64,000 bases of DNA, taken from the NCBI GenBank assembly GCA_964434535.1, contig CAYSWA010000007.1, positions 8,321-72,320 on the forward strand, given 5' to 3'. Below, piece by piece: positions 7,046-61,482 of this stretch. The number at the start of each line of letters is the position of its first letter. The first letter of the stretch is position 1. The notes under the pieces are model-generated. The model made no database searches, had not been told where the DNA came from, and worked only from the letters and a program-made list of their open reading frames with translations. The DNA comes from an uncultured candidatus Brocadiaceae bacterium. GTDB lineage: Bacteria > Planctomycetota > Brocadiia > SM23-32. Position numbers and translations under genes: made by a program.

Positions 7046-7897
7046 ATGCTGAAGTCATTGAGCATCTGGTGCCTGCCGGACAACGAGACGCGGCCGGCCG
7101 GGGAGATGTTCGACCAGGTGCGGGAGCGCGGGTTCGACGCCGTCGAGCTGGCCATCGGAGAGGCCGGCCTCGTCACCCTCCAGAGCACCGAGGAGGAGTG
7201 CCGCGCCCTCGGGCAGCTCGCCGCAGAGCGCGGCCTCCAGACGCCGACCGTGGCCAGCGGGCTCGGCTGGAAGTATCCGCTCACGGCCGACGAGCCCGAG
7301 GCCCGCGACCACGCGGCCGAGGTAATCCGCCGCAGCCTCCGCGCCGCCTCGTGGCTCGGCGCCGAGGTGCTGCTGGTCGTGCCGGGGACGCTGGCGCCTC
7401 CGGGGGCCGACTCCGCGTTCCACGTGCCTTACGACGTGGCCTACGAGCGCATGCGGGAGGGCGTCGGCCGGCTCGTCCCCACGGCCGAGGAGACCGGCGT
7501 CGCGATGGGCATCGAGAACGTGTGGAACCGCGTGCTGCTCTCGCCGCTGGAGATGCGCGACTTCATCGACTCGTTCGGCTCCGACGCGGTGGGGGCCTAC
7601 TTCGACGCGGGCAACGTGATCGTGACCGGCTACGCGGAGGACTGGGTGCGGATACTGGGCGCGCGCATCGGCGCCGTGCACTTCAAGGACTTCCGCCGCG
7701 CCGTCGGCACCTTGGAGGGCTTCTGCGACCTGCTCGAAGGCGACGTGGACTACCCCGCCGTGATGACCGCCCTCCGCGAAGCGGGCTATGACGGGGCGTG
7801 CACGGCGGAGTACTTTGGACTGGGCGAGGCGGCCCTGGCGAAGCTGAGCGCGGCCATGGATCGCATCCTCGCCATGCAGGACGCCGCCGGTCAGTAG
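7046..7897 (+). CDS. sugar phosphate isomerase/epimerase (xylose isomerase-like TIM barrel)
   Basis: FDAVELA, GLQTPTV, NVIVTGYAEDWVR and HFKDF motifs typical of the AP-endonuclease-2 / xylose-isomerase-like family. Confidence 0.75.
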   Translation: MLKSLSIWCLPDNETRPAGEMFDQVRERGFDAVELAIGEAGLVTLQSTEEECRALGQLAAERGLQTPTVASGLGWKYPLTADEPEARDHAAEVIRRSLRAASWLGAEVLLVVPGTLAPPGADSAFHVPYDVAYERMREGVGRLVPTAEETGVAMGIENVWNRVLLSPLEMRDFIDSFGSDAVGAYFDAGNVIVTGYAEDWVRILGARIGAVHFKDFRRAVGTLEGFCDLLEGDVDYPAVMTALREAGYDGACTAEYFGLGEAALAKLSAAMDRILAMQDAAGQ

Positions 7898-9051
7898 CGC
7901 AAGAGCGCGGCGACATCGTAGCCGTCGCCGGGCATCTCTTCCTGCTCCACGGCGTAGACCGCGCCCCTGTGCACGAGGACCTGCGCGGCGGCCTGGTCGA
8001 GCAGGTCCTCGTCGCCGACCTCCCCCTCCGCGTGCTCGGTCACCGCGTCCGAATCCGCGTCGTAGCTGCCCCAGCGGTGGACCCCGAGCGCCACGAAGAG
8101 GGTGTCGACGCGCCCGTGGTGGGCCGCCGGGACGGCTTGCTTCAGCTCCGTGGAGGCGCGCTCCGTCCCGAGCGCGGCCTCGAGGAACCCGGCCGCCTCG
8201 CGCTGGGCCTGCATGAAGACCGGCTCGACGATCGGCCAGGCCCTGTCGTGCAGCTCCTGCTCATTGAGCCTATCGGGATTGCCGCGGACGGCGTGCTCGA
8301 CCAGGTGCGGGTAGGAGTTCGCCTTCCGGTAGATCGGCAGCATGCTCTCGGCGCCGGCGAGCACAAGCGGCGCCTGCTGCCCGCCGAGTGCTTCGTGCAG
8401 GGCGGCGTCGATCTGGCGGAAGTACTCGCGGATGCGGTCCTGCTCGTCGTCCTTGGGCACGCCCTGCCCGTGGAAGATGGCGGCGCCCGTGCCGCCGCCG
8501 CGGGTCTGGCCGGTCCCCGTGTGGAACTGCAAGTGCTTCTCGCGCACGTCGAAGCGGAGCGCCTCGGCGAGGCTGGCGGGCATGCCGCGCACGTCCAGGT
8601 GCCGCACGCTCCAGTGCGTGCCCTCCAGCACGCGCACGGCGTTCTGGCTCAGCGCCAGGATGTAGAAGCGGCCGTCCCGGCTGAAGAACGGCAGCAGCGG
8701 CTTGATGTGGAAGTGCTCGCCGACCGCCGATAGCTGCTCGACCTCCAGGGGGAGGCGGTAGCTGGAGAACAGGCCGGGCGCCACGAAGGCCGCCAGCCCG
8801 TCCGCCTGCTGCTGCCAGAAGTCGGAGTCCTCCAGCAGCTCCCGGGCCGGCGCGAGGAACTGCTCCACCTCGCGGCGCTGCATGCCCCGCCCCTCCAGGG
8901 CGTCGCGGGCGGCGTAGAGCGCGTTTTTGAACCGGATCGGGTTCTGGCGCGTCTGGCTGCCCGCCCGCTCGGTGGGGATGTAGAGCGAGACGCACAGTCC
9001 CCCGTGCGCGTCGATGAGTTTCTCCAGCGCTTCCCCGGTCAGCAGTGCCAT
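7891..9051 (-). CDS. conserved hypothetical protein (possible eRF1-fold / Vms1-like family)
   Basis: 386-aa ORF with good coding composition. The N-terminus LCVSLYIPTERAG...NPIRFKNALYAARDAL resembles bacterial eRF1-like (baeRF/Vms1-like) proteins, but this is recalled by eye only. Confidence 0.5.
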   Translation of the reverse strand: MALLTGEALEKLIDAHGGLCVSLYIPTERAGSQTRQNPIRFKNALYAARDALEGRGMQRREVEQFLAPARELLEDSDFWQQQADGLAAFVAPGLFSSYRLPLEVEQLSAVGEHFHIKPLLPFFSRDGRFYILALSQNAVRVLEGTHWSVRHLDVRGMPASLAEALRFDVREKHLQFHTGTGQTRGGGTGAAIFHGQGVPKDDEQDRIREYFRQIDAALHEALGGQQAPLVLAGAESMLPIYRKANSYPHLVEHAVRGNPDRLNEQELHDRAWPIVEPVFMQAQREAAGFLEAALGTERASTELKQAVPAAHHGRVDTLFVALGVHRWGSYDADSDAVTEHAEGEVGDEDLLDQAAAQVLVHRGAVYAVEQEEMPGDGYDVAALLRY

Positions 9052-9182: not shown

Positions 9183-9211
9183 TTGACGGCCGGGCGCCGC
9201 CGTGGTAGAAG
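9183..9211 (+). promoter_or_regulatory. promoter TTGACG-N17-TAGAAG driving the riboswitch leader
   Basis: TTGACG 9183-9188, 17-nt spacer, TAGAAG 9206-9211. It lies immediately 5' of the riboswitch P1 stem. The same architecture recurs at other promoters in this window. Confidence 0.45.
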
Positions 9212-9392
9212 GGAGGTGTCGGCGGGTGGCCCGAAGGGGCCACGGGAAAACGGTGAGAATCCGTTGCGGACCCGCCGCTGTAACCGGTAGCCGGAGCCCG
9301 TCAGCAAGGCCACTGTCCCCCGCGCCGGGGGATGGGAAGGCGGGGCGAGCGGCGACGACCGGGAGCCAGAAGACCGACCCGCCGACGATGAG
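9212..9392 (+). promoter_or_regulatory. cobalamin (AdoCbl) riboswitch
   Basis: Conserved blocks GGTGAGAATCCG (9252-9263), B12-box GCCACTG (9309-9315), GGGAAGGCGGGG (9334-9345) and GAGCCAGAAGACC (9363-9375). P1 pairs GTCGGCGGG (9218-9226) with CCCGCCGAC (9378-9386). Confidence 0.85.
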
Positions 9393-9584
9393 TGCTGCGG
9401 ACCTTCGGGCTTGAGCGAAGCGGCACGCGAGACGGCGGAAGTCTGCCTGTCGACCGTGGCCCGCGCCCGATCTCTGCGGCGTCGGGCCGCGTTGCTGTAC
9501 GGCGCCGGCGCCCGGAGGGAGGCGGCGGTGCGGTCAGAGCGCATCGTCTCGGCGTGCCCGCACACGATGCAGGAGGGCCGGACG

Positions 9585-10328
9585 ATGCGGCGTCGCAGGG
9601 CTTTCACGCTCGTCGAACTGCTTGTCGTGATGGCGATCCTGGCCATCTTAAGCGGCCTGATCATGCCGGCCGTCAACGAGGCGCGCCTCGAGGCCAGGGC
9701 CACGAGCTGCCGCAACCGACTGCGGCAGATCGGGTTCGCCACCGAGATGCACACCACCGACCACGGCGGACACCTGCCCGACGCCGGCGACTACACCGGG
9801 CGCCAGTTCTTCGGCCATTACGGCGGGCCCGCCGAGTACGTGGACTTCGGGGAGGGGTTCCTCTCCTCCTACGTCGGCAACGACCGGGATGTCTGGCAGT
9901 GCCCGTCCTTCACGGACTTCTTCCCCCGCGCCCTCGGCCCCTGCACCGGCTACGGCTACAACTACCACTACCTGACGGAGCTGGTCGAGGAGGGCAACTG
10001 GTGGGACCCCGACTACAAGTACTGGTGGAAGGGCCTGCCGGAGGGGAGAATCCGCAAGACCACAAGAACGGTGCTGTTCGGCGACTCCGCCCGCAACTGG
10101 ATGGGGCCGCTTGAGGAGAACTGGTTCTGGACGCCGCCGTCGCAGGCGCTCGCCTGGCCCGGATGGGAGACCGCCTACGCCCACTTCCGCCACCGGCTGA
10201 AGCTGAACGTCGTCTGGGCCGACGGGCACGTCAGCACGCTGCGTCCGGATCCCATCTTCCCGCTCGACCATGACCTGCTCGGCTACATCTGCGACACCTC
10301 GGACGTCTACTTCGATCCGGAGCAGTAG
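9585..10328 (+). CDS. DUF1559 / prepilin-type N-terminal cleavage-methylation domain protein (type II pseudopilin-like)
   Basis: ATG 9585 with AGGAGG 9 nt upstream. N-terminus [22 protein letters not shown] is a class III signal / pilin N-methylation motif. C-terminal WADGHVS is the DUF1559 H-X9-G-type motif. Confidence 0.8.
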
Positions 10329-10350
10329 CGAGCGTCCCGAACTGCGTTGG

Positions 10351-10437
10351 TGGTCCCTGACACTTGAGATTATGGGCCGTGGTTCGGTGGCACGGGCTTC
10401 CAGCCCGTGAATCATGGCCAGGATGGCCATGCCACAC
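10351..10437 (+). repeat. structured dispersed repeat, copy A (three-way hairpin element)
   Basis: A 51-nt block TGGTCCCTGACACTTGAGATTATGGGCCGTGGTTCGGTGGCACGGGCTTCC and a terminal GGCCATGCCACACT are shared, in inverted orientation, with 52066-52160. Internal hairpins are CACGGGCT/AGCCCGTG and CATGGCCA/TGGCCATG. Confidence 0.7.
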
Positions 10438-10490
10438 TAAGACGGCCACCGGTAGAATCAAAACTCACAGGTCACCAGGAGGGCTCGGCC

Positions 10491-10901
10491 GTGGCCTATC
10501 GCCGCAGGAAGGTCGTCGCCGTCGTGCTGTTCGCCGGGGCGGCGCTGGGGCTGGCCGGCTTCGGCTTGCTGCGCGGGGGACGCTACGAACAGAGGGGCGC
10601 CGGGCCCGCATCGGAACAAGCGCGGGCCGCCCTGGAGGTGATCCACGCGCTGGCCCGAGAGCCCGAGAGCGTCGCCGACCATCTGCACCCGACCGCCACG
10701 CGGCTGGCGCAGGGAGCCGTAGAGAAGGCCGCCGAGCTGCTCCACAAGGCCGAATCCTACCGCCTGAAAGACGCTGAGTGGTTCGGCGAGTACCTGCGCG
10801 TCGGCGTTCTCTGCGTCCTGAAAGACGGGCGCGAGATGGAACGCTACTTCCTGTTCAGGGAGGAGGGCGGACAGCTCCTCGTCACCGGCCTCCAGCAGTA
10901 G
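10491..10901 (+). CDS. hypothetical membrane-anchored (periplasmic) protein
   Basis: GTG 10491 preceded by AGGAGG and a TAGAAT -10-like hexamer (10452-10457). Hydrophobic N-terminal helix VVAVVLFAGAALGLAGFGLL. No recognisable domain. Confidence 0.5.
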   Translation: MAYRRRKVVAVVLFAGAALGLAGFGLLRGGRYEQRGAGPASEQARAALEVIHALAREPESVADHLHPTATRLAQGAVEKAAELLHKAESYRLKDAEWFGEYLRVGVLCVLKDGREMERYFLFREEGGQLLVTGLQQ

Positions 10902-10936
10902 GGCCGTCCCCTGCTTCCACCGAAACGGGCTTGCAC

Positions 10937-11860
10937 GTGAGCGACGCAGCCGCCAAAGCGCTGATCGCAGCGGTCGCGTTCGCCGTCGGTCTCGGCCTGT
11001 CGATGTGGCTGCTGCGTCTGCCGATGCCGGGCGCCGGTGAGGGCCCGAGCGCGAGCTCGGGGGGCTATCGCTACGGGCGGGTCATCTGCATGTCGCCCGC
11101 CACCGCCGAGATCGCCTTCGCCCTCGGGGCCGGCGGGCGCGTGGTGGGCGTCAGCGAGTACACGCAGTACCCGCCCGAGGCGCTCCAGAAGCCGACCTGC
11201 GGAGGGTTCTTCAACCCCAACTACGAGCTGATCCTCGCCCTGCGGCCGGACCTGCTGCTCACCCAGGGCCGCGCGGCGGAGCTGGAGCGCTTCGCCCGCG
11301 AGAACGGGCTCGCCTTCGGCTCGGTCGAACTGACCGACCTCTCGTCCATCTTCGCCGCCGTCGAGCGGATCGGCGCGCTATTGGAGGCGCAGGAACGGGC
11401 GGCCGACCTCGTCGCCCACATGGGCGAGCGGCTGGCGGCGGTGCGGGCGCGCGTGGCGGGCCGGCAGCCGGCCTCCGTCCTGCTGGTCAGCGGTCGTGAG
11501 CCCGGCTCGCTGACCGGGGTCCACGCGGTCGGGCCGGGCACCTTCCTGCACGACCTGGTCGGCGTCGCGGGCGGGCGGAACGTCTTCGGCGACATGGAGC
11601 GCTCCTACGCGGCCGTCAGCAAGGAGGCGATCCTGGAACGGGCGCCCAAAGTCGTCATCGAGCTGCACGGCGAGGGAGGCGACGCGCGCGAGCTGAACCG
11701 GCGCGTGCGGGCGCTCTGGGGCGCAATGCAGCCGCTGCCGGCGGTGCAGGCCGGCCGCGTCCACGCCATCGAGGCCACCTACGCGATGGTGCCCGGCCCG
11801 CGGGTCGTGCGGCTGGCGGAGCGCCTGGGCGAGCTGCTGCATCCGGAGGCCGGGCCATGA
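10937..11860 (+). CDS. btuF: ABC transporter periplasmic substrate-binding protein, BtuF/FecB (cluster A-II) family
   Basis: RVICMSPATAEIAFALGAGGRVVGVSEYTQYPPEA...LRPDLLL matches the BtuF N-lobe pattern. It lies downstream of the cobalamin riboswitch. Confidence 0.75.
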   Translation: MSDAAAKALIAAVAFAVGLGLSMWLLRLPMPGAGEGPSASSGGYRYGRVICMSPATAEIAFALGAGGRVVGVSEYTQYPPEALQKPTCGGFFNPNYELILALRPDLLLTQGRAAELERFARENGLAFGSVELTDLSSIFAAVERIGALLEAQERAADLVAHMGERLAAVRARVAGRQPASVLLVSGREPGSLTGVHAVGPGTFLHDLVGVAGGRNVFGDMERSYAAVSKEAILERAPKVVIELHGEGGDARELNRRVRALWGAMQPLPAVQAGRVHAIEATYAMVPGPRVVRLAERLGELLHPEAGP

Positions 11861-12663
11861 CCGAGCCGCTGCTGGCGCTGCGCGACTGCCGCTTCCGCTA
11901 CGAGGAGGCCGGCTTCAGGCTGCGCGACGTCTCGCTGGAGGTCGGGGCCGGCAGCGTCGTCGGAGTGGTCGGCCCGAACGGGTCGGGCAAGAGCACGCTG
12001 CTGCGGCTGGCGGCCGGGCTGCTCCGCCCGGACGCGGGCGAGGCGCTCATCGGGGGCCATCGGGCCCACGAGCTGGGGCGGCGGCGGGTGGCGCGGATGC
12101 TCGCCTTCCTGCCCCAGCAGACGCGGGCGGCCTTCGGCTTCACCGCCCGGCAGGTCGTCGAGATGGGCCGCTTCCCCCACCAGCGGGGGCTCGGTTTCAT
12201 GGGCGCCGCCGACGTGCGCGCCGTGCGCACTGCGCTGGAGCGCACGGGGTCGGGCGGGCTCGCCGACCGGCGGTTCTCCACGCTCTCAGGCGGCGAGAAG
12301 CAGCGGGTGCTCATTGCCAGCATCCTGGCCCAGGAGCCGTCGGTGATGCTGCTGGACGAGCCGGCCGCCGCCCTCGACGTGCACCACCAGGCCGAGGTGC
12401 TCGACCTGCTGTGGGACCTCTCGCGCACCGGCATCGCCGTGCTGCTGGTCACGCATGACCTCAACGCGGCGGCCCGCTTCTGCGAGCGGCTCGTCCTGCT
12501 CTGCGAGGGGGCCGTGGCCCGCGCCGGGACGCCGGACCAGGTGCTGGAGCAGGAGCTGCTCGCGGAGGTCTACGGGGCCGACGTGCGCGTCTGCCGCAAC
12601 CCCGTCACGGGCACGCCGATGGTCACCGTGCCCGGAAGGAGGGCCCATGCCGCGCGCGAGTGA
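11857..12663 (+). CDS. btuD: ABC transporter ATP-binding protein (BtuD/FecE-like)
   Basis: Walker A GPNGSGKST, signature LSGGEKQRV, Walker B MLLDEPAAALD. Overlaps the upstream gene by 4 nt. Confidence 0.85.
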   Translation: MTEPLLALRDCRFRYEEAGFRLRDVSLEVGAGSVVGVVGPNGSGKSTLLRLAAGLLRPDAGEALIGGHRAHELGRRRVARMLAFLPQQTRAAFGFTARQVVEMGRFPHQRGLGFMGAADVRAVRTALERTGSGGLADRRFSTLSGGEKQRVLIASILAQEPSVMLLDEPAAALDVHHQAEVLDLLWDLSRTGIAVLLVTHDLNAAARFCERLVLLCEGAVARAGTPDQVLEQELLAEVYGADVRVCRNPVTGTPMVTVPGRRAHAARE

Positions 12664-13672
12664 GCACCTGACGCCGGTGCGCTTCGGGGGCACGGTCGGC
12701 CTGGCGGCGCTCGCCTGGGCAGCGGCGGGGCTGGTATGCCTCTTCTACGGTCAGGCCGACGTGCCGGCGGCGCGCATCCTATCGGTCCTCTCCGGCGCGG
12801 GGGGCGGCCCGCAGGAGGCCAACATCGTGCTGATGCAGCGGCTGCCGCGCGTGCTGCTGGCACTGCTGGCCGGCGGCGGGCTGGCGATGACGGGCGCGGT
12901 CTTCCAGGCGATGCTGCGCAATCCCCTCGCCACTCCGCACATCCTCGGTGTCTCGGCCGGCGGGGCGCTCGGGGCGGTCCTGGCCATATCGGCCGGCCTC
13001 GCCGGGCCGGGGCTCGGGCCGTTCCGGCCGGTGCAGCTCTTCGCGCTGGCGGGTGCTCTGGCGAACGTGACCGTCATCTACCTGCTGGCGCGGCGGCGGG
13101 AGGTCTTCTCGCCTCTGAAGCTGCTGCTGGCCGGCGTGACGCTCGGGCTGATCTGCTCGGCGCTGATCATGTTCGTGCGGTTCGTCTCCGAGCCGACGAA
13201 GCTGGTGATGGTCGACCGCTGGCTGATGGGCGGGCTCGACGTGCACGGGTTCCGCAGCGTGGCGGCGGTGCTGCCGCTGCTGCTGCCGGCGGGGGCGCTG
13301 CTGATGAGCGAGGCCGGCGCGCTGAACCAGCTCGCGTTGGGGGAGGAGCTGGCGGCCGGCCGGGGCGTGAACGTGGCCGGGGTGCAGGTCGAGGCGTTCG
13401 TTGCGGGCTCGGTGCTGACGGCCGTGGTGGTCTCGGTGGCCGGGCCGATCGGGTTCGTCGGGCTGATCGTGCCGCACGCGCTGCGGGGCATCTTCGGCCC
13501 CGACCACCGGCTGCTTCTGCCGCTGAGCTTCTTCGGGGGCGGTGCGTTCCTGGCGGCGGCGGACACGGTGGCGCGTTCGGCCTTCGCCCCTTCCGAGCTG
13601 CCGGTGGGGGTGCTGACGGCGATGCTCGGCGGCCCGTTCTTCCTGGCGCTGCTGGTCACGCGCGCCCGGTAG
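12647..13672 (+). CDS. btuC: ABC transporter permease, FecCD/BtuC family
   Basis: ATG 12647 with GGAAGGAGG upstream. About 10 TM helices with FecCD-family motifs (ILGVSAGGALGAVLAI, GPIGFVGLIVPH). Confidence 0.8.
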   Translation: MPRASEHLTPVRFGGTVGLAALAWAAAGLVCLFYGQADVPAARILSVLSGAGGGPQEANIVLMQRLPRVLLALLAGGGLAMTGAVFQAMLRNPLATPHILGVSAGGALGAVLAISAGLAGPGLGPFRPVQLFALAGALANVTVIYLLARRREVFSPLKLLLAGVTLGLICSALIMFVRFVSEPTKLVMVDRWLMGGLDVHGFRSVAAVLPLLLPAGALLMSEAGALNQLALGEELAAGRGVNVAGVQVEAFVAGSVLTAVVVSVAGPIGFVGLIVPHALRGIFGPDHRLLLPLSFFGGGAFLAAADTVARSAFAPSELPVGVLTAMLGGPFFLALLVTRAR

Positions 13673-29906: not shown

Positions 29907-30041
29907 TGAGCGGCCTCCCTGCTCGCCACGCCGCATTCTACCGAGCGGGCGAGGCCCAACACAAGGCGGCCCTCCCGCTCCGTGGCGCGACGGGCTCCGC
30001 AGGGCTTAGAATGGTCCGGATCGGCACTTCGAGGATCCCCC

Positions 30042-32762
30042 ATGCCCGACGCACAAGCCGGCCCGCCATCGACCGGGCGCTCCGACGAGGAGCTGTGGGA
30101 GCGGTTCGTCGGCGGCGACGCCGCCGCGCTCGCCGAGCTGAGAGCCCGCCACACGGGCCCGCTCTACCGCTACCTGCTGCTGAGCACCGGCCGCCCCGAC
30201 GAGGCCGGCCGGCACGTGGTCGGCACGTGGAGCCTGCTGGCCTGCTACCGGGAGCGCTTCCAGGGCTTCGCCTCGTTCCGCGCCTGGCTCTACGCCGTGG
30301 CCACCCAGAGGTGGATGCCGCCGACGCACCCCGAGCAGTTCGGCCTGACCGACCTGATGGACGATCTGCGCCGCGGCCGGCCGAGCTCGCGCGAGGGACG
30401 CATCTTCTTCCGCGTCAACGACATGCATCGCTCCGTGCGGCAGCCGTTCCTGCTGGAGGCGCTGGCGGGCCTCGGGCCCGACGAGATCGCCGCCGCCTGC
30501 CGCTTCACGCCCGAGCGCGTCCGCAAGGCTCTCGCGACGGCCTACCGGCGCCTCGCCCGCAGCGGGCTCTTCGGCCCGGGCGAGGGGGCGGACGCGGAGT
30601 CGCGCGCGGCCATCGCCGAGCAGGTCCGGCAGGCCGCCGACGTCTCGCTGCCGGAAGAGATGGCGGAGCTCGTCGAGCGCGGGGTGGCGGAGGCGACTGA
30701 GAGCGGGGAGGTGCTCCGCACTGCCCCGGCCGATTGGAGGCCCGAGCGTTCGGGCCGGCAGCGGGCGGCCCTCGTGGTGGCGTCCATCGTCCTGTTCGTG
30801 GTCGGGTCGGCCGGGCTTCTCGCTCTGCTGGGAGGCCGGGGGGAGCCCGTGCCGCCGGTCGCCGAAGCGGCCTCTCTATCAGGCCGCGCCGAGGTGCGGC
30901 CCCCGGGCGTCAGCGTGTGGCGCGAGATGGGCCGGCGGGAGTCCCTGCCGCCCGGCGCGCAGGTGCGCACCGGGCCGCAGGCCTACCTGGTGCTGCGGGG
31001 GGAGGGGGTCGAGTGGTGGCTGCCGCCCGTCACGGTCGTGGCGCTGCCCGAGCCCCGGACGGCTGAGCTGCTGGCAGGGAGGCTGTATGCGCGCGTGGAA
31101 ACCGGCGAAGCCCCGGGACGCGTGACCTCCGAGAACGGAAGCGTGGCCTGCCCGGAGGGGGAGTTCGTCGCCCGGGTGACCTCCCGGCGCTTCATCGCCG
31201 GCTGCGTGGGCGGAGACGCGGCTGTCGAGGCGGGCGAGGCGAGCGCGCAGCTCGGCCCCGGGGAGCTGACCATGGCCACCCGGGGCGAGCATGTCGGGCC
31301 GGTGCGGCCCGTCCGCCCCGCGCAGCTCACGCACTGGCTGGGTGAGTTCGCGCGCTACGAGGGGCGCCACATCGAGCCGCGGCAGCTCGCCGGCGTGCCC
31401 CTCGCGCCCGCGGCGCCCGCGCTGCCGCGCGGCGTGCGCATGGAGCGGCTCGCGCTGGAGCTCACCGTGCGCGGCCCCCTTGCGCTCGTCGAAGTGCGGG
31501 CGGCGCTGAGCAACGAAGGCGATGCGCAGTGGCAGGGGACGCTGGACCTCGGCGCGGCCGTCCTTCCCCCGCCCCTGGCGATCACCTCGGACGGGCCGCT
31601 TCGGCTGGCGCCCGGCGAGGGGGGCGAGGCCCGGCTGGCCGGGCTCTGCCTCATGCGCGACCGGCGCGGGCACTACGCCCTCGGCATCGACCCGGGCGCC
31701 TGGAGCGGCGGGACAATCGGCCGTCTGGACGTGCAGGTGAGCTCTGACGCGCAGGGCGGCATCGGCCGCTTCGCCTGCCCCACGCTCGGGGCGCGCTTGA
31801 GGCCGCGGGGGGCGCTGGACTGGACGGCGCGGCGCCGGGATTTCGCTGCGGAGACGCCGCTCGTCTTCGAGTTCGAGTTCGGCAAACCCGAGGGCATCGC
31901 GTGCCTGACGGGCTCCACCGACGGCGCGCGGGCGGCCCTGGTCGCCTGGCGGCCTCCCGCCGTGAAGCAGGAGTGGATCGCGAAGGAGCGCAACGTCTTC
32001 ATCGCTTTCGACGCCACGGCCGACTTCGGCCCGGGCGGCCGTTTCGCTGCCCAGGAGGCGCTGGAGGGCCTGATCCAGGCGCTGCCGCCGGGCTGCTCGA
32101 CGGCCTTGCTCGCCTACGACGGCCGGCTGCGGCTTGACCCCGACCGCCTGGCGCTGCACCATCCCGACCGGGTGGAGTCGATGCTCTCCGGGCTCTGGCA
32201 GCTCCAGGTGGAGGGCGCGGAGGAGGAGGCCGCGCCCGGCGCCTTCCTGGCGGCCGCCGTCGAGCTGGCCGTGGGGGCCGAAGGGGAGGGGTTGCTCGTG
32301 TTCGTCACCGGGCGCGAGGCGCCCGTGGAGCTGCCGGAGGCCAGGCCGGACGGCGGCCTGCGCGTCTGCGTCATCCAGGTCGGCGCGGAGGCGCCCGCCG
32401 CGGCGTATGCGGCCCTGTGTGCGGGCACGGGCGGCGTGGCGCTGGCCGTGCCGCCGACGGCGGCGCCGGACCTGGCCGTGATCGACTTCCTGGTGAACCT
32501 GGACGTGGCGGCGCTGCGCGAGGTCGCGCTCGATGCGCCGGGCGCCGGCGCGGCGGCCGTGCTGCGGGGGGAGGCGCGCTTCAGCAGCCAGCCGGTTGTC
32601 GGGCTGCTCGCCCTGCCGGGGGCGGGGGGTTCGGTGGCCGGCCGCTTTCGGGCGCGCGCCGGGGGACGCGCATTGGAGCGGCACTTCGCCCTCGAAGCGA
32701 CGCCGGTCGACTCCCTGCCGCCCGCGCTCGTCCGGGTGCTGGGGCAGCGCCACCTGCGGTGA
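30042..32762 (+). CDS. fusion protein: ECF sigma-70 factor + transmembrane FecR-like anti-sigma domain + C-terminal vWA-like domain
   Basis: Sigma region 2 (LYRYLLLSTGRPDEAGRHVVGTWSLLACYRERFQGFASFRAWLYAVA) and region 4 HTH (PDEIAAACRFTPERVRKALATAYRRL). One TM helix (LVVASIVLFVVGSAGLLALL). FecR-like block (SVWREMGRRESLPPGAQVRTGPQAYLVLRGEGVEWW). vWA-like VFIAFDATADFGPGG near the C-terminus. A TAGAAT -10 lies at 30007-30012. Confidence 0.7.
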   Translation: MPDAQAGPPSTGRSDEELWERFVGGDAAALAELRARHTGPLYRYLLLSTGRPDEAGRHVVGTWSLLACYRERFQGFASFRAWLYAVATQRWMPPTHPEQFGLTDLMDDLRRGRPSSREGRIFFRVNDMHRSVRQPFLLEALAGLGPDEIAAACRFTPERVRKALATAYRRLARSGLFGPGEGADAESRAAIAEQVRQAADVSLPEEMAELVERGVAEATESGEVLRTAPADWRPERSGRQRAALVVASIVLFVVGSAGLLALLGGRGEPVPPVAEAASLSGRAEVRPPGVSVWREMGRRESLPPGAQVRTGPQAYLVLRGEGVEWWLPPVTVVALPEPRTAELLAGRLYARVETGEAPGRVTSENGSVACPEGEFVARVTSRRFIAGCVGGDAAVEAGEASAQLGPGELTMATRGEHVGPVRPVRPAQLTHWLGEFARYEGRHIEPRQLAGVPLAPAAPALPRGVRMERLALELTVRGPLALVEVRAALSNEGDAQWQGTLDLGAAVLPPPLAITSDGPLRLAPGEGGEARLAGLCLMRDRRGHYALGIDPGAWSGGTIGRLDVQVSSDAQGGIGRFACPTLGARLRPRGALDWTARRRDFAAETPLVFEFEFGKPEGIACLTGSTDGARAALVAWRPPAVKQEWIAKERNVFIAFDATADFGPGGRFAAQEALEGLIQALPPGCSTALLAYDGRLRLDPDRLALHHPDRVESMLSGLWQLQVEGAEEEAAPGAFLAAAVELAVGAEGEGLLVFVTGREAPVELPEARPDGGLRVCVIQVGAEAPAAAYAALCAGTGGVALAVPPTAAPDLAVIDFLVNLDVAALREVALDAPGAGAAAVLRGEARFSSQPVVGLLALPGAGGSVAGRFRARAGGRALERHFALEATPVDSLPPALVRVLGQRHLR

Positions 32763-43460: not shown

Positions 43461-45797
43461 TCAGCCGCCGAGGCCGTAGGAGGCGATGCGGGCCCGCAGC
43501 GTGTTGCGGCTGATCCCGAGCTCGCGGGCCGTGCGGGTCTGCACGCCGCCGTTGGCCGCCAGCACGTGGGCGATGAGCGTCCGCTCGACCAGGCCGATCA
43601 CCTCGTCGTAGAGCTCGCCGTCGCTGCCGCGTCGCAGCTCGGCGATCAGGGGCAGCAGCGCCTCCCTGAGGTCGCGGGCCGGTTCGGGGCGAGGGCGCCG
43701 CCGGGGCGCGCAGATCGACTCGGGCAGCAGCTCGACCGTGATCGTGGCGGTCCGGGTCAGCACGATGGCCCGCTCGATGCAGTTCTCCAGCTCGCGGACG
43801 TTGCCGGGCCAGTCGTAGGCCGTCAGCATGTCCAGGGCCTCGCGGGAGAGCTTGTCGACCTGCTTGTCGTCTTCGCGGCTGAAGACGCCCATGAAGTGCT
43901 CGACCAGCAGGGGGATGTCCTCTCGCCGCTCGCGCAGCGGGGGCAGGCGGATGGGCAGGACGTTGAGCCGGTAGTAGAGGTCCTGGCGGAACCCGCCGGC
44001 GTTGACCCGGTCGGCCAGGTCCACATTCGTGGCCGCCACCACGCGGACGTCGACCCGGACGGCCTGCGAAGCGCCGACGCGCTCGAATTCCTTCTCCTGG
44101 AGCACCCGCAGGAGCTTGACCTGGAGCTGCGGGCTCATGCTGCTGACCTCGTCCAGGAAGACGGTGCCCCCGTCGGCGAGGGCGAACCGGCCGGCGCGAT
44201 CGCGCGTGGCGCCGGTGAAGGCGCCCTCGACGTGGCCGAACAGCTCGGACTCCAGCAGCGAGTCGGGCAGGGCGCCGCAGTTGACGGCCACGAACGGGCC
44301 GTCGGCCCGGGGGCTGTTGGCGTGGATGACGCGGGCGATCAGCTCCTTGCCCGTGCCCGTCTCGCCCTGGATCAGCACGGTGGCGTTGCTGTCGGCGACG
44401 GCCTCGGTCAGGGCGAGCACCTCCTGCATGGGCTGCGAAGCGCCGATGATGCTGCCCTGGTCGTAACGCGACTCGGCGTGCGCCTTTGCGCCGGCGCCCC
44501 GCAGCAGCTCCTCTTTCTCGATGGCGACCATGCGGTTGATCTTGATCGCCTGCGAGATCATGGAGCCGACGATCTGCAGCAGGCGCTGGTCCTTCTCGAG
44601 CGTCTCGGCGTCGACGAACTCGCGGTCCGCGCTCAAGGCGCCGATCACCTGCTCCTCCAGGCGCAGCGGGATGCAGACGAAGGAGACGGGGGCGGCGCGC
44701 ATGTCCCGCCGGCGGGCGCCGGTGCGGTCCAGGAAGCGCGGGTCGCGCCGGATGTCGGGCACGGCCACCGCCGTCCCGCTCTCGACCACTGCGCCGGTGA
44801 CGCCCTCGCCGGGCTGGTAGACGCCCCGCGACATCTCCTCGCGGCTCAGCCCGTGGGCGGCGGCGATGCGCAGCGTGCCGCTGGCCCGGTCCTCCAGCAC
44901 CAGCGTGCCGCGTTTCATCTTCAGCCCGCGCGCCAGCACGGACATGATGGTTTCGAAGACGACGTCCAGGTCGAGGCTGCTGCCCAGGGCGCGGCTGATC
45001 TCCCTGAGCAGGCGCACCTCGAGCTCCTCGCGTCGCCGGGGCACCGGCTCGGGCCGGCCGTCGACCGACTCGAAGTAGTGCGGCGCCCCGATGCGGCAGG
45101 CGGGCCGGTCCTCCGCCTTGCGCACGATCAGCTCGATGCCGCCGCTGCCGACGCCGAGCTCCAGGACGACCTGGGTGACGTGCAGCAGCTTGGCCAGGAA
45201 GCTCGGAGAATGCGCGTGCTTCTCGGTGATCCAGTAGGCGACGGTCGACAGGTCGTAGAGCTTCGGGCAGAGGTGGCTGAAGAACTTCAGCACCTGCTCC
45301 TCGCCGCCCCACAGCTCCAGCATGGCGGTGGGGCTGTCGAAGACGTAGCGCCCGCGCGCGCCGGCGCGCTCGGCGAGCTCGCTCATGATCCCGCGCAGCC
45401 GGTCCGCGTCCGCCGGCTGCGGCACGCGGGTCACCGTCAGCCCGTCCGGGCCCGCCTCCCGGTAGAAGTCGGTGAAGAAGGCGTCGTCCTTGCCGAAGCC
45501 CGAGGTGAACGCATCGACCAGGTGGAAGCGCGGCAGCAACTCGTCGGTGACGTAGCGGTTGAGGATCGACTGGGGCGAGTGGCTGAAGCTGACGAAGAAG
45601 ATGCGGCTCTCGTCGCGGGCGGCCGTGGAAAGGAAGCTGCGGATGAAGAACTCCACCGGGGCGCCCGAATCGACCTGCCAGACCAGGTTGTCCCCGGCGC
45701 ACAGGCCGCTCAGTATGCGGTCCAGATACTCGACGCCGCTGCTGATGTGGTGAGCTTCCATCGGTGCTTGGTTCCCCTGAGTGGTTACGAAGTGCAC
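43461..45797 (-). CDS. sigma-54-dependent transcriptional activator, NifA-like (degenerate KaiC-like domain + GAF + AAA+ + Fis HTH)
   Basis: AAA+ block [15 protein letters not shown]...[15 protein letters not shown] (GAFTGA motif). GAF block ([12 protein letters not shown]). C-terminal HTH ([17 protein letters not shown]). The N-terminal roughly 250 aa resemble a KaiC/RecA-like fold lacking the P-loop. The start could be GTG 45797 or ATG 45763. Confidence 0.85.
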
Positions 45798-45966: not shown

Positions 45967-46035
45967 TGCGGGTGGAGTGGGCGAGTGACGGGGGGCCGGC
46001 CATTGAAGGCCTACTGCGGGAGGTGTGAGTCCACG

Positions 46036-47466
46036 GTGTCGCGCGCGCAGGGGTGCCTCGTCCCTTACGAGGGACCGCGCGAGGAGTGCGGGATCATCGG
46101 CCTCTACGGGGTCGAGCACGCCGCGCGGCAGGCGCACCTCGGCCTGTATGCGCTCCAGCACCGGGGGCAGGAGTCGGCGGGCATCGTCGCCTCCGACGGC
46201 GAGGGCATCCAGAGCGCGAAGGGCCTCGGCCTGCTGGCCGAAGCGATCGAGGCGTCGGCGCTGGCCGACCTGCCGGGGCACATCGCCATCGGCCACGTGC
46301 GCTACTCCACCACGGGCGCCAGGCGGGTGCAGAACATCCAGCCGCTGGTCATCGAGTACGCCGGCGGCATCGTGGCCGTGGCCCACAACGGGAACCTGAC
46401 CAACGCCCGCGCCCTGCGGCGGCGCTATGAGCAGAAGGGCTCGATCTTCCAGACCTCGACCGACAGCGAGGTCTTCGTCCACCTTCTCGCTGACCCCGAG
46501 CACCTCGGCGCCCCGGACCCGCTCAAGGAGGTGCTCCGGCACGTGCGCGGCGCCTACTCGCTGGTGCTTCTGACGGCCACCCAGCTCATCGCCGCCCGCG
46601 ACCCCCATGGGTTCCGCCCGCTCTGCCTGGGGCGGCTCGACGGCGGCTACGTCGTCGCCAGCGAGACCTGCGCGCTCGACCTGCTCGGGGCCCGCTTCGA
46701 GCGCGAGGTGCAGCCGGGCGAGGTCATCTTCGTCGACGAGGGCGGCCTGCGCGTCGAGACGTTCGCCGAGCCCCGGCGCGGCGCCCGGTGCGTCTTCGAA
46801 TACATCTACTTTGCCCGGCCGGACAGCGTCATCTTCGGCGAGACGGTCCACAACGTCCGCGTGCGCCTGGGGGAGAACCTGGCCAAGGGGGCGCCGGCGG
46901 ACGGGGACATCGTGGTCTCGGTGCCGGACTCGGGCAACTCGGCCGCGCTCGGCTACTCCCGCCGCTCGGGCATCCCGCTCGACATCGGCTTCGTGCGCAA
47001 CCACTACATCGGACGCACCTTCATCACCCCGGCCGAGGAGGCCCGCGCCAGCAGCGTGCGCATCAAGCTCAACGTCGTGCGCGACGTGGTGCGCGGCAAG
47101 CGCCTGGTGGTGGTGGACGACTCGATCGTGCGCGGCACCACATCCCGCGCGCGCATGGCGACGCTGCGGGAGGCCGGCGCCCGCGAGGTGCACCTGCGCG
47201 TCAGCGCGCCGCCGATCCGGCGCCCTTGCTTCTACGGCATCGACTTTCAGCACCCCGACGAGCTGATCGCCCGCGACCACAGCGTCGAGGAGATCGCCCG
47301 CTTCATCGGCGTCGACACCCTCGGCTACCAGAGCATCGAGGGGCTGATCGACGCCGTGCCGGGCGGCCCGGAGGACTACTGCTGCGCCTGCTTCACCGGC
47401 GAGTACCCGGTCGAGCTGACCGAGGCGATGGCCAAGGACGACCTGGAGCCCGGCCGCCGCCGCTGA
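46036..47466 (+). CDS. purF: amidophosphoribosyltransferase
   Basis: Catalytic CGIIGLYG N-terminal nucleophile after a short propeptide, PRTase motif VVVDDSIVRGTT, and C-terminal Cys cluster (CFYGID...CCACFTGEYP). The GTG start at 46036 is inferred and could lie elsewhere. Confidence 0.85.
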   Translation: MSRAQGCLVPYEGPREECGIIGLYGVEHAARQAHLGLYALQHRGQESAGIVASDGEGIQSAKGLGLLAEAIEASALADLPGHIAIGHVRYSTTGARRVQNIQPLVIEYAGGIVAVAHNGNLTNARALRRRYEQKGSIFQTSTDSEVFVHLLADPEHLGAPDPLKEVLRHVRGAYSLVLLTATQLIAARDPHGFRPLCLGRLDGGYVVASETCALDLLGARFEREVQPGEVIFVDEGGLRVETFAEPRRGARCVFEYIYFARPDSVIFGETVHNVRVRLGENLAKGAPADGDIVVSVPDSGNSAALGYSRRSGIPLDIGFVRNHYIGRTFITPAEEARASSVRIKLNVVRDVVRGKRLVVVDDSIVRGTTSRARMATLREAGAREVHLRVSAPPIRRPCFYGIDFQHPDELIARDHSVEEIARFIGVDTLGYQSIEGLIDAVPGGPEDYCCACFTGEYPVELTEAMAKDDLEPGRRR

Positions 47467-47580: not shown

Positions 47581-49134
<1,554 letters not shown>

Positions 49135-51520: not shown

Positions 51521-51862
51521 GTGAAACTGATCATCGCCTACATCCAGCCCGAGAAGCTCAGTGACGTCAAGCAGGAGCTCTACCGGGCCGAGGTCTTCAA
51601 GATGTCCGTCACCAACGCGCTCGGCTGCGGCCAGCAGAAGGGCTACACCGAGTCCTACCGCGGCGTTGAGATGGAGGTGAACCTGCTGAAGAAGGTCCGG
51701 CTGGAGATCGCGGTCAACGAGGACTTCGTCCGGCCGACGGTCGAGGCGATCATCGCGGGCGCGAAGACCGGCCAGATCGGCGACGGGAAGATCTTCGTGC
51801 TCGACCTGCACCAGTGCATCCGCATCCGCACCGGCGAGACGGGGAGCGGGGCCATCGGCTGA
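51521..51862 (+). CDS. glnK: nitrogen regulatory protein P-II (GlnK, amt-linked)
   Basis: [13 protein letters not shown]...T-loop YRGVEMEV...RIRTGETG. 19 nt downstream of amt. Confidence 0.9.
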
Positions 51863-51935: not shown

Positions 51936-51986
51936 AACCTACGTGAATGTGGGGAGGGGCACCTCGAACCTACGCGATAGTAGGTT
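51936..51986. promoter_or_regulatory. AACCTAC half-site (51936-51942) plus inverted repeat AACCTAC-GCGATA-GTAGGTT (51967-51986); candidate regulator binding sites upstream of glnA
   Basis: Perfect 7-bp arms with a 6-bp spacer. Related sites occur at 47526-47560 and 49131-49154. Confidence 0.4.
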
Positions 51987-52065
51987 GTTCACGGAAACGG
52001 TAAGCGGGCCTGAGATTGCGTAAGGCGTTGCAGATAAGTGATGCTTCGTGTCACTTGATTCTGGG

Positions 52066-52160
52066 AGTGTGGCATGGCCCTCCGGCCCAGAGGGGCCTCC
52101 GGCCCGGCGGGAAGCCCGTGCCACCGAACCGCGGCCCATAATCTCAAGTGTCAGGGACCA
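52066..52160 (-). repeat. structured dispersed repeat, copy B (inverted relative to copy A)
   Basis: Its reverse complement matches the 10351-10401 core at 50 of 51 nt and shares the terminal GGCCATGCCACACT. The centre differs, carrying a GGGCCGGAG direct repeat. Confidence 0.7.
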
Positions 52161-52186
52161 GTAGCTTACGGAAGGCCGAGGAGCAT

Positions 52187-52201
52187 TGGCACGGCCGTTG
52201 C
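52187..52201 (+). promoter_or_regulatory. sigma-54 promoter TGGCACG-GCCG-TTGCT for glnA
   Basis: Near-perfect match to TGGCACG-N4-TTGCW. The GG and GC are 10 nt apart. About 78 nt upstream of the glnA ATG. Confidence 0.65.
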
Positions 52202-52278: not shown

Positions 52279-53610
52279 ATGGAGATGAAAAACAGGGACT
52301 TCGTTCTGAAGGCCGTCAGCGACCACAAGGTGAAGTTCATCCGCCTCTGGTTCACCGACGTGCTCGGCTTCCTGAAGAGCTTCGCGATCACGGCCGAGGA
52401 GCTGGAGGAGGCGCTCGACGAGGGGATGGGCTTCGACGGGTCGTCGATCGAGGGCTTCGCGCGCATCCAGGAGAGCGACATGATCGCCCGGCCCGATCCG
52501 AGCACGTTCGCCATCCTGCCATGGCGTCCGACCGAGGACGGGGCGGTGGCGCGCATGTTCTGCGACGTGCTCCAGCCGGACGGCACGCCGTATGAGGGCG
52601 ATCCCCGGTGGGCCCTGAAGCGCAACCTGGAGAAGGCGGCGCAGATGGGCTACCGATTCTACGTCGGCCCGGAGCTGGAGTTCTTCTACTTCAAGGACGC
52701 CTCGACGGTGGCCACGCTCGATGCCGGCGGCTACTTCGACCTGACCCCGCTGGATGTGGCGAGCGACCTGCGGCGCGACTCGGTGCTCGCCCTGGAAAAG
52801 CTCGGCATCCACGTCGAGTACAGCCACCACGAGGTCGCACCGAGCCAGCACGAGATCGACCTGCGCTTCATGGACGCCCTCTCCATGGCCGATGCCGCGA
52901 TGACCTACCGGCTCACCGTCAAGGAGGTCGCCCTCCAGCACGGCGTCTACGCCACCTTCATGCCCAAGCCGATCGCCGGGGAGAACGGCAGCGGCATGCA
53001 CACGCACCAGTCGCTCTTCGCCGGGGAGGAGAACGCGTTCTTCAGCGCCGACGACGAGTTCCACCTCTCGAACGTGGGCAAGTCCTACATTGCCGGGCTG
53101 CTGACCCACGCGCGGGAGATCTGCTCGCTGGTCGCCCAGTGGGTCAACTCCTACAAGCGGCTGGTGCCGGGCTACGAGGCGCCGGTCTACGTCTCGTGGG
53201 CGCGCCGCAATCGCTCGGCGCTGGTGCGGGTGCCGATGTACAAGCCCGAGAAGGCGAAGGCGACCCGCGCCGAGTTCCGCTGCCCCGACCCGGCCTGCAA
53301 CCCCTACCTGGCCTTCGCCGTGATGCTGGCCGCCGGCCTGAAGGGCGTCGAGGAGGGCTACGAGCTGGCGGACCCGGTCGAAGAGGACATCTTCGAGATG
53401 ACCGAGGCCGAGCGGGAGGCGCGCGGCATCCTCTCCCTGCCGGGCAACCTGGCCGAGGCCATCGCCGAGACCGAACGGAGCGAACTGGTCCGCACAGCGC
53501 TCGGGGACCACATCTTCGAGAAGTTCATCGCCAACAAGAAGATCGAGTGGGACGGCTACAGGATGCACGTCAGCCGCTTCGAACTGGACAAGTACCTCCC
53601 TATCCTCTGA
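52279..53610 (+). CDS. glnA: glutamine synthetase, type I
   Basis: ATG 52279 with AAGGAGGGAGG upstream. GS beta-grasp and catalytic motifs (KFIRLWFTD, GSSIEGF, MPKPIAGENGSGMHTHQS, adenylylation-region NPY). Confidence 0.9.
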   Translation: MEMKNRDFVLKAVSDHKVKFIRLWFTDVLGFLKSFAITAEELEEALDEGMGFDGSSIEGFARIQESDMIARPDPSTFAILPWRPTEDGAVARMFCDVLQPDGTPYEGDPRWALKRNLEKAAQMGYRFYVGPELEFFYFKDASTVATLDAGGYFDLTPLDVASDLRRDSVLALEKLGIHVEYSHHEVAPSQHEIDLRFMDALSMADAAMTYRLTVKEVALQHGVYATFMPKPIAGENGSGMHTHQSLFAGEENAFFSADDEFHLSNVGKSYIAGLLTHAREICSLVAQWVNSYKRLVPGYEAPVYVSWARRNRSALVRVPMYKPEKAKATRAEFRCPDPACNPYLAFAVMLAAGLKGVEEGYELADPVEEDIFEMTEAEREARGILSLPGNLAEAIAETERSELVRTALGDHIFEKFIANKKIEWDGYRMHVSRFELDKYLPIL

Positions 53611-61017: not shown

Positions 61018-61482
61018 CACCACGGAGACACCGAGGCACGGAGAACGGCGAAGAAGCGGGATGCCGGCCAGCAGGGCCTGGTGGGCGGAGACGCTGAGCG
61101 AGCAGGTGATCGGGGCGGCTATCGAGGTGCACAAAGCGCTGAGACCGGGCCTGCTCGAGTCCGTATACGAGGAGTGCCTTTGCCACGAGCTTCACTTGCG
61201 GGGCGTGGGTTTCCGCCGGCAGGTGAACCTTCCGGTGGCCTACAAGGGCATCAAGCTGACGAGCGGGCACCGGATGGACGTGGTCGTGGAAGAAACGCTT
61301 GTCGTGGAGGTCAAGGCCGTGCAGGAGCTATTGCCGGTGCACGAGGCTCAACTGCTCACCTACTTGCGCCTTTCGGGGTTTCCTGTCGGGTTGCTGATGA
61401 ACTTCAACGTTCCGGCGCTGAAAGAGGGGATCGTCCGAAAGGTGCTGTAATAATGAACGCCGTTCTCCGTGTCTCCGTGGTG
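61018..61482. mobile_element. 465-bp cassette with 13-bp perfect terminal inverted repeats (CACCACGGAGACA / TGTCTCCGTGGTG) flanked by 7-bp direct repeat AATGAAC; carries one GxxExxY gene
   Basis: TIR-L 61018-61030 and TIR-R 61470-61482. The extended IR includes CGGAGAACGGCG / CGCCGTTCTCCG. Target-site-duplication-like AATGAAC at 61011-61017 and 61483-61489. The interior GC content is lower. Confidence 0.55.
61061..61450 (+). CDS. GxxExxY protein (PD-(D/E)XK-like nuclease fold)
   Basis: [28 protein letters not shown] (GxxExxY motif)...[16 protein letters not shown], the hallmark of the family. 129 aa. Confidence 0.8.

Follow-up and report, generated by a model that had tools for sequence, protein, structure and literature searches.

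The stretch of DNA studied here (64,000 nt, referred to below as the window) contains two copies of a short repeat, A and B. Copy A belongs to an apparent operon (window 9207-13672) headed by a cobalamin riboswitch (9207-9396, 85.9 bits). The order within this operon is an N_methyl/DUF1559 pseudopilin-like gene (ending at 10328), copy A, a 136-aa orphan gene and BtuF/BtuD/BtuC-like ABC transporter genes; copy A occupies the intergenic space that separates the first two genes and lies 0 nt from the ribosome-binding site (RBS) of the second. The original prediction had placed copy A between a DUF1559 gene and a TAGAAT −10 hexamer, and both landmarks are there: the protein encoded upstream is of the N_methyl/DUF1559 type, and a sigma-70-like site, ATGCCA-18-TAGAAT, agrees with the consensus at 9 of 12 positions (TAGAAT at 10453-10458). 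As this site is present in copy A only, it was ruled out as a promoter borne by the element. Copy B lies between the P-II gene (51521-51862) and glnA (52279-53610). No transposase of any kind is encoded among the 44 genes of the window, and a tblastn search of the window with a PVC Y1_Tnp protein (from a Verrucomicrobiota locus) gave no match. Some neighbouring genes deserve a mention in their own right. The control of a DUF1559 protein by a B12 riboswitch is unusual; immediately before the riboswitch, the other strand carries a baeRF (bacterial archaeo-eukaryotic release-factor-like) gene (7891-9051, minus strand); and a 926-aa ORF with high GC3 (29982-32762, plus strand) had no Pfam match. 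The parts of the two copies, and the glnA upstream features next to copy B, are the following.

10351-10386, plus strand: 5' module of copy A, TGGTCCCTGACACTTGAGATTATGGGCCGTGGTTCG, 36 nt, 35/36 identical to that of copy B
10387-10409, plus strand: REP hairpin H1 of copy A, with a GTGG tag, an 8-bp stem CACGGGCT/AGCCCGTG and a TCC loop
10410-10412, plus strand: AAT, the 3-nt spacer between the tail-to-tail hairpins
10413-10435, minus strand: REP hairpin H2 of copy A, reading GTGG-CATGGCCA-TCC-TGGCCATG on the minus strand
10436-10438, plus strand: ACT, the final bases common to copies A and B
10439-10477, plus strand: putative and weakly supported 3' arm of copy A, partially complementary to the 5' module
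52066-52160, minus strand: part of copy B shared with copy A
52125-52160, minus strand: 5' module of copy B
52121-52124, minus strand: GTGG tag of copy B
52073-52120, minus strand: centre of copy B, GC-rich and rearranged, without perfect hairpins and with a GGGCCGGAGG duplication
52069-52072, minus strand: CCAC tag of copy B, followed by ACT
52038-52065, minus strand: 3' arm of copy B, CCCAGAATCAAGTGACACGAAGCATCAC, an imperfect inverted repeat of the 5' module (TGTCACTTGATTCTGGG versus TGACACTTGAGATTATGGG)
52020-52170, plus strand: target of copy B, the dyad GTAAGG (52020-52025) and CTTACG (52165-52170), split by the element
52187-52201, plus strand: sigma-54-type glnA promoter TGGCACGGCCGTTGC, 26 nt downstream of the element end and conserved in relatives

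The 51-nt core of the repeat is found at 10351-10401 on the plus strand (0 mismatches) and at 52110-52160 on the minus strand (1 mismatch, i.e., 50/51 identical), and a 14-nt block is exact (14/14) at 10425-10438 (+) and 52066-52079 (−). Not one of 100 shuffled sequences contained a match to the core. The inverted recurrence of both blocks in the glnK-glnA spacer, as originally predicted, is therefore well founded. The predicted span of copy A holds at its start, 10351, and has to be extended by one base at its end, since the exact 14-nt block finishes at 10438 and not at 10437. Copy A is thus an 88-nt shared unit (10351-10438, plus strand) and its counterpart in copy B (52066-52160, minus strand) measures 95 nt; 41 nt separate the 51-nt and 14-nt blocks in A versus 48 nt in B, and gaps are needed to align them. 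In a search for repeats over the whole window, this pair (repeat I5) was the sole short near-identical (96%) inverted repeat. The other stretches recovered (I1-I4 and I6) belong to paralogous GAF/sigma-54-activator/HTH_8 genes at 43461-45797 (−) and 47581-49134 (+), which face each other on either side of a class-II glutamine amidotransferase gene (45985-47466) and are 72-83% identical in DNA. Copies A and B are both intergenic, at two unlinked sites, and the duplication is near-exact. The 36-nt 5' module is relatively AT-rich in a genome of 71% GC.

Two perfect hairpins, each with an 8-bp stem and a 3-nt loop, occupy the middle of copy A: CACGGGCT-TCC-AGCCCGTG (10391-10409) and CATGGCCA-GGA-TGGCCATG (10413-10431). 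Both had been predicted. The outer helix GTGGCA...TGCCAC that was thought to enclose them does not stand, because its CA and TG belong to the hairpin stems; what is left is GTGG (10387-10390) paired with CCAC (10432-10435), in other words two tags facing each other. GTGG sits 0 nt 5' of the stem in both hairpins, each on its own strand. [quoted passage not shown] Their stems and loops also fall within the REP range (fully paired basal stem of 7-20 bp, loop of 2-5 nt). Copy B retains the two tags (52121-52124 and 52069-52072) and its centre forms no perfect hairpin. Simple decay is not the explanation for copy B, in which the perfect hairpins are lost and the flanks are 98-100% identical to A. 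With its tags pointing outward, copy A is a tail-to-tail heterodimer whose hairpins are 3 nt apart, and both the extragenic location and the inverted arrangement are those of REPs, which often form head-to-head or tail-to-tail dimers. H1 and H2 are identical at 17 of 23 positions, and all six differences form three compensatory pairs. The pair is not a REPIN, in which two near-identical inverted REPs make up one long hairpin: here 6 of 23 positions differ and the hairpins are separate. No GTGG-tagged hairpin besides those of the repeat pair was found in the 64-kb window, nor was any found in about 63 kb from the closest relatives. REP families run to tens to thousands of copies per genome; here two elements are seen in 64 kb. 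A RAYT (Y1_Tnp) gene, usually with REPs on either side of it, is also typical of REP-bearing genomes, and none is present among the 44 genes of the window.

We then asked what the site of copy B looks like in related genomes. The amtB-glnK-glnA regions of four relatives (L008/L009, L010, L011 and L119; GlnA identity 82-85%) were compared with the window; a relative with 94% GlnA identity stands outside the comparison of the spacer, as its contig begins past it. The glnK-glnA spacer measures 416 nt in the window versus 198-274 nt in the relatives. In all four, constant distances separate the landmarks upstream of glnA, which are, in order, an AACCTAC-type palindrome, a GTAAGG-N16-CTTACG dyad and a TGGCAC-N5-TTGC sigma-54 promoter. 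Measured from start to start, the successive landmarks are 51-53, 22 and 21-22 nt apart in L008/L009, L010 and L011, versus 53, 145 and 22 nt in the window, so that the two halves of the dyad, 22 nt apart in every relative that keeps the motifs, are 145 nt apart here. In L119, which was read by eye, the dyad is degenerate (GTAGG...CTTTAC), with about 22 + 22 nt to TGGCAT. The extra bases in the window number exactly 123 (52038-52160), of which 95 nt are common with copy A and 28 nt form the 3' arm. Since the window matches the layout of its relatives except for these 123 bases inside the dyad, copy B is an insertion in an otherwise conserved glnA upstream region, a filled site set against empty ones in relatives, as expected of MITE-type elements. 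The regions aligned are window 51936-52201, L008 8621-8730, L010 2895-3004, L011 9771-9882 and L119 5342-5500; two AACCTAC-N-GTAGG palindromes lie upstream of glnA in the window.

Both the GlnA identities and the gltB-gltD-carA-guaA synteny group the window with L008/L119 and not outside all relatives, and a gain in the lineage of the window is therefore the parsimonious reading. For copy A an orthologous empty site is not obtainable, as the 136-aa protein encoded downstream had itself as its sole database match. The inverted arrangement of the two copies also brought to mind a 41.8-kb composite transposon; this was rejected, because the amtB-glnK-glnA-gltB-gltD-carA-guaA synteny crosses copy B as in L008, and also because the flanks show no duplication. 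Within the same syntenic block, a gene for a 129-aa PD-(D/E)XK nuclease (PDDEXK_3, 61061-61450) lies between carA and guaA; these two are adjacent in L008, and the nuclease gene therefore looks like a second small insertion.

The two parts of the element have very different distributions in other genomes. Scanning the genome collection with an 18-mer across the junction of the 5' module and H1 gave 101 loci, mostly chance or coding matches, among which a subset from PVC-type metagenome-assembled genomes (MAGs) carries H1. The full H1-spacer-H2 pair is present at four loci in Planctomycetota MAGs (L014, Pirellulales; L031 and L069, Planctomycetota; L034, Sedimentisphaerales) with GC contents of 46-63%, and a scan of the viral collection (IMG/VR) with H1 alone added the contigs L114, with two pairs, and L115. 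The hairpin pair is thus dispersed in other Planctomycetota. In 19 related loci, GTGG is by a wide margin the commonest tetranucleotide 5' of perfect hairpins (27/170 versus 5 for the next), and it tags other stems there as well. In L114 each of the two pairs follows a stop codon and precedes the RBS of another gene, as copy A does, and one of the spacers holds an extra hairpin; these pairs parallel the position of copy A and the variable centre of copy B. The 36-nt 5' module was not found in the genome collection (185,579 species genomes), gave zero matches in each of the viral, plasmid and phage collections, and had seven matches in the metagenome collection, all by chance and with unrelated flanks. 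It occurs nowhere else in the window or in the glnA regions of relatives and is part of no described REP; a literature search with the sequence of the element returned only unrelated papers. The copies looked for in related genomes were thus found as far as the hairpin pair is concerned and not found for the 36-nt module of the 51-nt core.

Some further loci came out of these scans. Larger composite palindromes with H1 as their outer arms are found in Tepidisphaerales loci. The GTGG-CACGGGC hairpin makes up the outer inverted arms of composites of about 100-150 nt in L106 (1260-1410 and 3365-3515), L085 (2440-2545) and L105 (1230-1350). L085 and L106 are of the Tepidisphaerales type, and the composites of L106 add a second hairpin (e.g., TGCCGCGGTACTCCGCGGCA) and a CCCTCTCCCTCCGGGAGAGGG centre. 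In the Verrucomicrobiota MAGs L016 (470-1105, 1100-1190 and 1719-1785) and L037 (1913-2545), a Y1_Tnp (RAYT-like) gene is flanked by hairpins of the GGCGGTTTGTAAACCGCC type, and a GTAG-CCACGGCCC REP pair lies near these genes, an incidental example of a REP/RAYT association in the PVC group. Finally, the sole Logan contig for the copy A region (L113; SRR7048218, 1570 nt) begins inside the element, its positions 1-60 being window 10434-10493, which could be due to graph branching at the repeat or to a drop in coverage at the hairpins.

Altogether, these results point to a palindromic repeat, about 123-127 nt long, non-coding and non-autonomous, which probably belongs to the REP-dimer/BIME/REPIN class, with MITE-like features, and has probably been mobile in this lineage. 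In the best explanation that we can offer, its core is the tail-to-tail pair of GTGG-tagged REP hairpins, which in this genome comes with a 36-nt 5' module specific to the lineage and with a 3' arm of loose complementarity. Among the possibilities raised by the original prediction, the REP/MITE-like one is supported: the GTGG-tagged pairs fit the REP definition, Planctomycetota elsewhere carry the pair, and four relatives lack the 123 nt that were inserted as copy B.

The ends of the element bear on a somewhat different reading, namely a classical MITE, i.e., a deletion derivative of a DDE-type IS mobilised through terminal inverted repeats, with the REP-like hairpins as internal cargo. The size of the element and its absence of coding capacity would suit such an origin. 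The 28-nt arm of copy B aligns with the 5' module over 17 positions with 15 matches and a 2-nt gap (compared with random segments of the window, p about 0.002), this imperfect inverted repeat falls within the 123-nt insertion, and a degenerate pair, GTAGCTT / GTGATGCTT, is at most what could be taken for a target duplication around B. Inverted repeats also flank the hairpin pair in L115 (p 0.004) and L031 (p 0.034), two of six instances tested outside this genome; of seven pairs elsewhere, four have none. However, TGGTCCC, the outermost 7 nt common to both copies, falls outside the inverted repeat, and copy A has neither a target duplication nor a significant terminal repeat. Its arm (to 10477), which includes AGAATCAA-N4-CAC and the TAGAAT hexamer and stops at the RBS of the next gene, shows loose complementarity to the 5' module (p 0.11 by alignment, second test p 0.75; duplex energy p 0.03-0.07; nhmmer match to its own reverse complement, E 3.6e-4; DNA fold of the whole element, z −3.6). 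For the element overall, arm duplex energies are marginal (p 0.03-0.2), and the 3' arms of A and B have little in common beyond AGAATCAA-N4-CAC. Folded as DNA, the whole element pairs from end to end with z between −3.1 and −4.1 in three of four folds (both strands of A and the element strand of B; the other strand of B gave −1.3), and much of this signal comes from the central hairpins. No IS with these ends was found. On balance a classical MITE is rather unlikely.

The element could also be thought of as a structured small RNA, or a cis-regulatory RNA, present in two copies. As RNA, copy A folds at −37.9 kcal/mol (z = −2.1), a value that 5 of 200 shuffled sequences equalled; copy A lies within an operon transcript, the 51-nt block is almost perfectly conserved and the differences between the hairpins are compensatory, all of which would suit an RNA. 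However, copy B is unremarkable (z = −0.6, 43/200 shuffles) and has not kept either perfect hairpin, and in the hairpin pairs aligned from elsewhere, three of four H2 variants disrupt base pairing instead of compensating. The two copies are oppositely oriented relative to local transcription, a promoter-like site exists in A only and a terminator in neither, and copy B is a recent insertion into a promoter region, missing from relatives. Nothing in either copy reached the gathering score of an Rfam 15 covariance model, and only noise appeared at E values up to 10, including a tRNA-Sec match at the element (E 0.95). We therefore consider the RNA option of the original prediction very improbable. 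Two other candidates were discarded on inspection. A small ORF with an ATG at 10372 is 12 codons long in A, runs on into a long tail of unrelated sequence in B, and is not a gene; a sigma-54 promoter within the element (TGGCACGGGCTTCC) lacks the −12 TTGC, the true promoter being at 52187-52201.

A related idea is that the 36-nt 5' module is the binding site of a regulator or of a nucleoid protein such as IHF, and that selection keeps the two loci identical. E. coli BIMEs can carry IHF sites. That the module is 35/36 identical and AT-rich in a 71% GC genome, next to a diverged centre, would agree with this idea, as would the AATCAA-N4-CAC of both 3' arms, which is similar to one half of the IHF consensus in E. 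coli. Yet the IHF-like match is partial (6/9 core positions), chance-expected and not significant; the module is absent from the rest of the window, from the glnA regions of relatives, from the 185,579 species genomes and from metagenome contigs; and no regulatory logic common to a B12 uptake operon and glnA is obvious. A conserved protein site thus seems slightly less credible still than an RNA. The last possibility, a terminator-like insulator between neighbouring transcription units, has in its favour that both copies lie downstream of a stop codon and contain GC-rich hairpins and that a separation of glnK from glnA is plausible, but it is the least probable of all, because the search for intrinsic terminators (a GC-rich hairpin followed by a T-run) gave 0 sites on either strand of either copy, the glnK-glnA junction of relatives works without the element, and copy A is inside an apparent operon, immediately next to an RBS.

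How might such a REP-type element have spread? We propose that a transposase, its gene lying in another part of the genome, would act in trans to copy the element to new sites. An HUH-Y1 (RAYT or IS200-like) enzyme would be the likeliest mover, recognising the GTGG-tagged hairpins in single-stranded DNA, and such a mechanism would fit the absence of a clear target duplication. Once inserted, the element would be mostly a passenger. Copy A could nevertheless serve as a barrier at an mRNA 3' end or as an attenuator, by analogy with E. coli REPs. With copy B, the distance from the upstream palindromes to the sigma-54 promoter would grow by 123 bp, or about 11.7 helical turns, and the conserved dyad would be split. 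It is from what is published on REPs and from general background that we infer the type of transposase, the possible effect of copy A on mRNA stability or attenuation and the possible effect of copy B on the control of glnA.

The insertion is of some interest for glnA itself. Copy B has naturally placed 123 bp between the sigma-54 promoter and the palindromes upstream of it, in the middle of a dyad that four relatives conserve; should glnA control still be normal in the organism, the insertion informs us about the tolerance of this promoter geometry. For annotation, the REP-type reading accounts for an odd, structured-looking repeat and cautions against calling it a small RNA or a terminator. 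One may speculate further, with low confidence, that the H1-H2 pair, nearly identical across Planctomycetota genomes of 46-71% GC and two contigs of the viral collection, is a phylum-wide unit recognised by a protein, captured here into an element of about 125 nt whose insertions rewire expression at both sites. If that were true, the insertion of copy B would both extend and interrupt the region between the enhancer and the sigma-54 promoter of glnA, and that of copy A would give the B12 transporter genes a riboswitch-independent promoter (ATGCCA-18-TAGAAT).

Several known systems resemble the element in part. In E. coli, REPs and BIMEs are bound and cut as single-stranded DNA by a Y1 (RAYT) enzyme. 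They share with the present element tagged palindromes in alternating orientation together with extra conserved non-REP motifs, and a location in transcribed intergenic regions downstream of genes; unlike them, the element has an unrelated sequence and forms no clusters or arrays in the window, the genes of which include no RAYT. The ERIC/IRU and Correia-type MITEs, which can alter promoters or mRNA processing, are likewise imperfect palindromes; they measure about 100-155 nt and sit in intergenic DNA that is often transcribed. However, the terminal repeats of those elements are well defined, and Correia elements have a TA target duplication, whereas here the ends are poorly defined, no duplication is clear and there is no sequence similarity. 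The REPINs of Pseudomonas (Bertels and Rainey 2011, PMC3116915) are, as may be the case here, mobile units of about 100 nt made of two inverted REPs, non-autonomous and intergenic; their halves are near-identical and form one long hairpin, whereas the halves described here differ at 6 of 23 positions and fold separately.

The closest parallel is found in the PVC superphylum, where Di Nocera et al. (2013, PMC3733652) described GTAG-type REPs, the tag of which has mutated into GTGG in Opitutus terrae. The copy number of the O. terrae family, GTAG-19, is very high, whereas two elements are seen here in 64 kb, and nothing in that family corresponds to the 36-nt 5' module or to the 3' arm. In both cases GTGG lies directly 5' of a short GC-rich hairpin and the elements are mostly intergenic. 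GTAG-19 inserts in O. terrae encode the peptides HGRHARAT and GTGVPPV (PMC3733652 supplement). To the extent that two peptides define a DNA sequence, they back-translate to GTGG-CACGGGCG-TGC-CGCCCGTG, which would share with H1 the tag, 7 of 8 stem pairs and the stem CACGGGC; judging from the same peptides, the closing pair and loop would be G-TGC-C in O. terrae, unlike the T-TCC-A of the element. GTAG-19 elements are mostly tail-to-tail dimers, 1-2 bp apart, and heterodimers are common (PMC3733652). The pair described here likewise forms a tail-to-tail dimer with a spacer of a few bases, the partners differing by compensatory changes in the stem. REP-type hairpin pairs, known from Opitutus and Rhodopirellula, are thus found in uncultured Planctomycetota as well.
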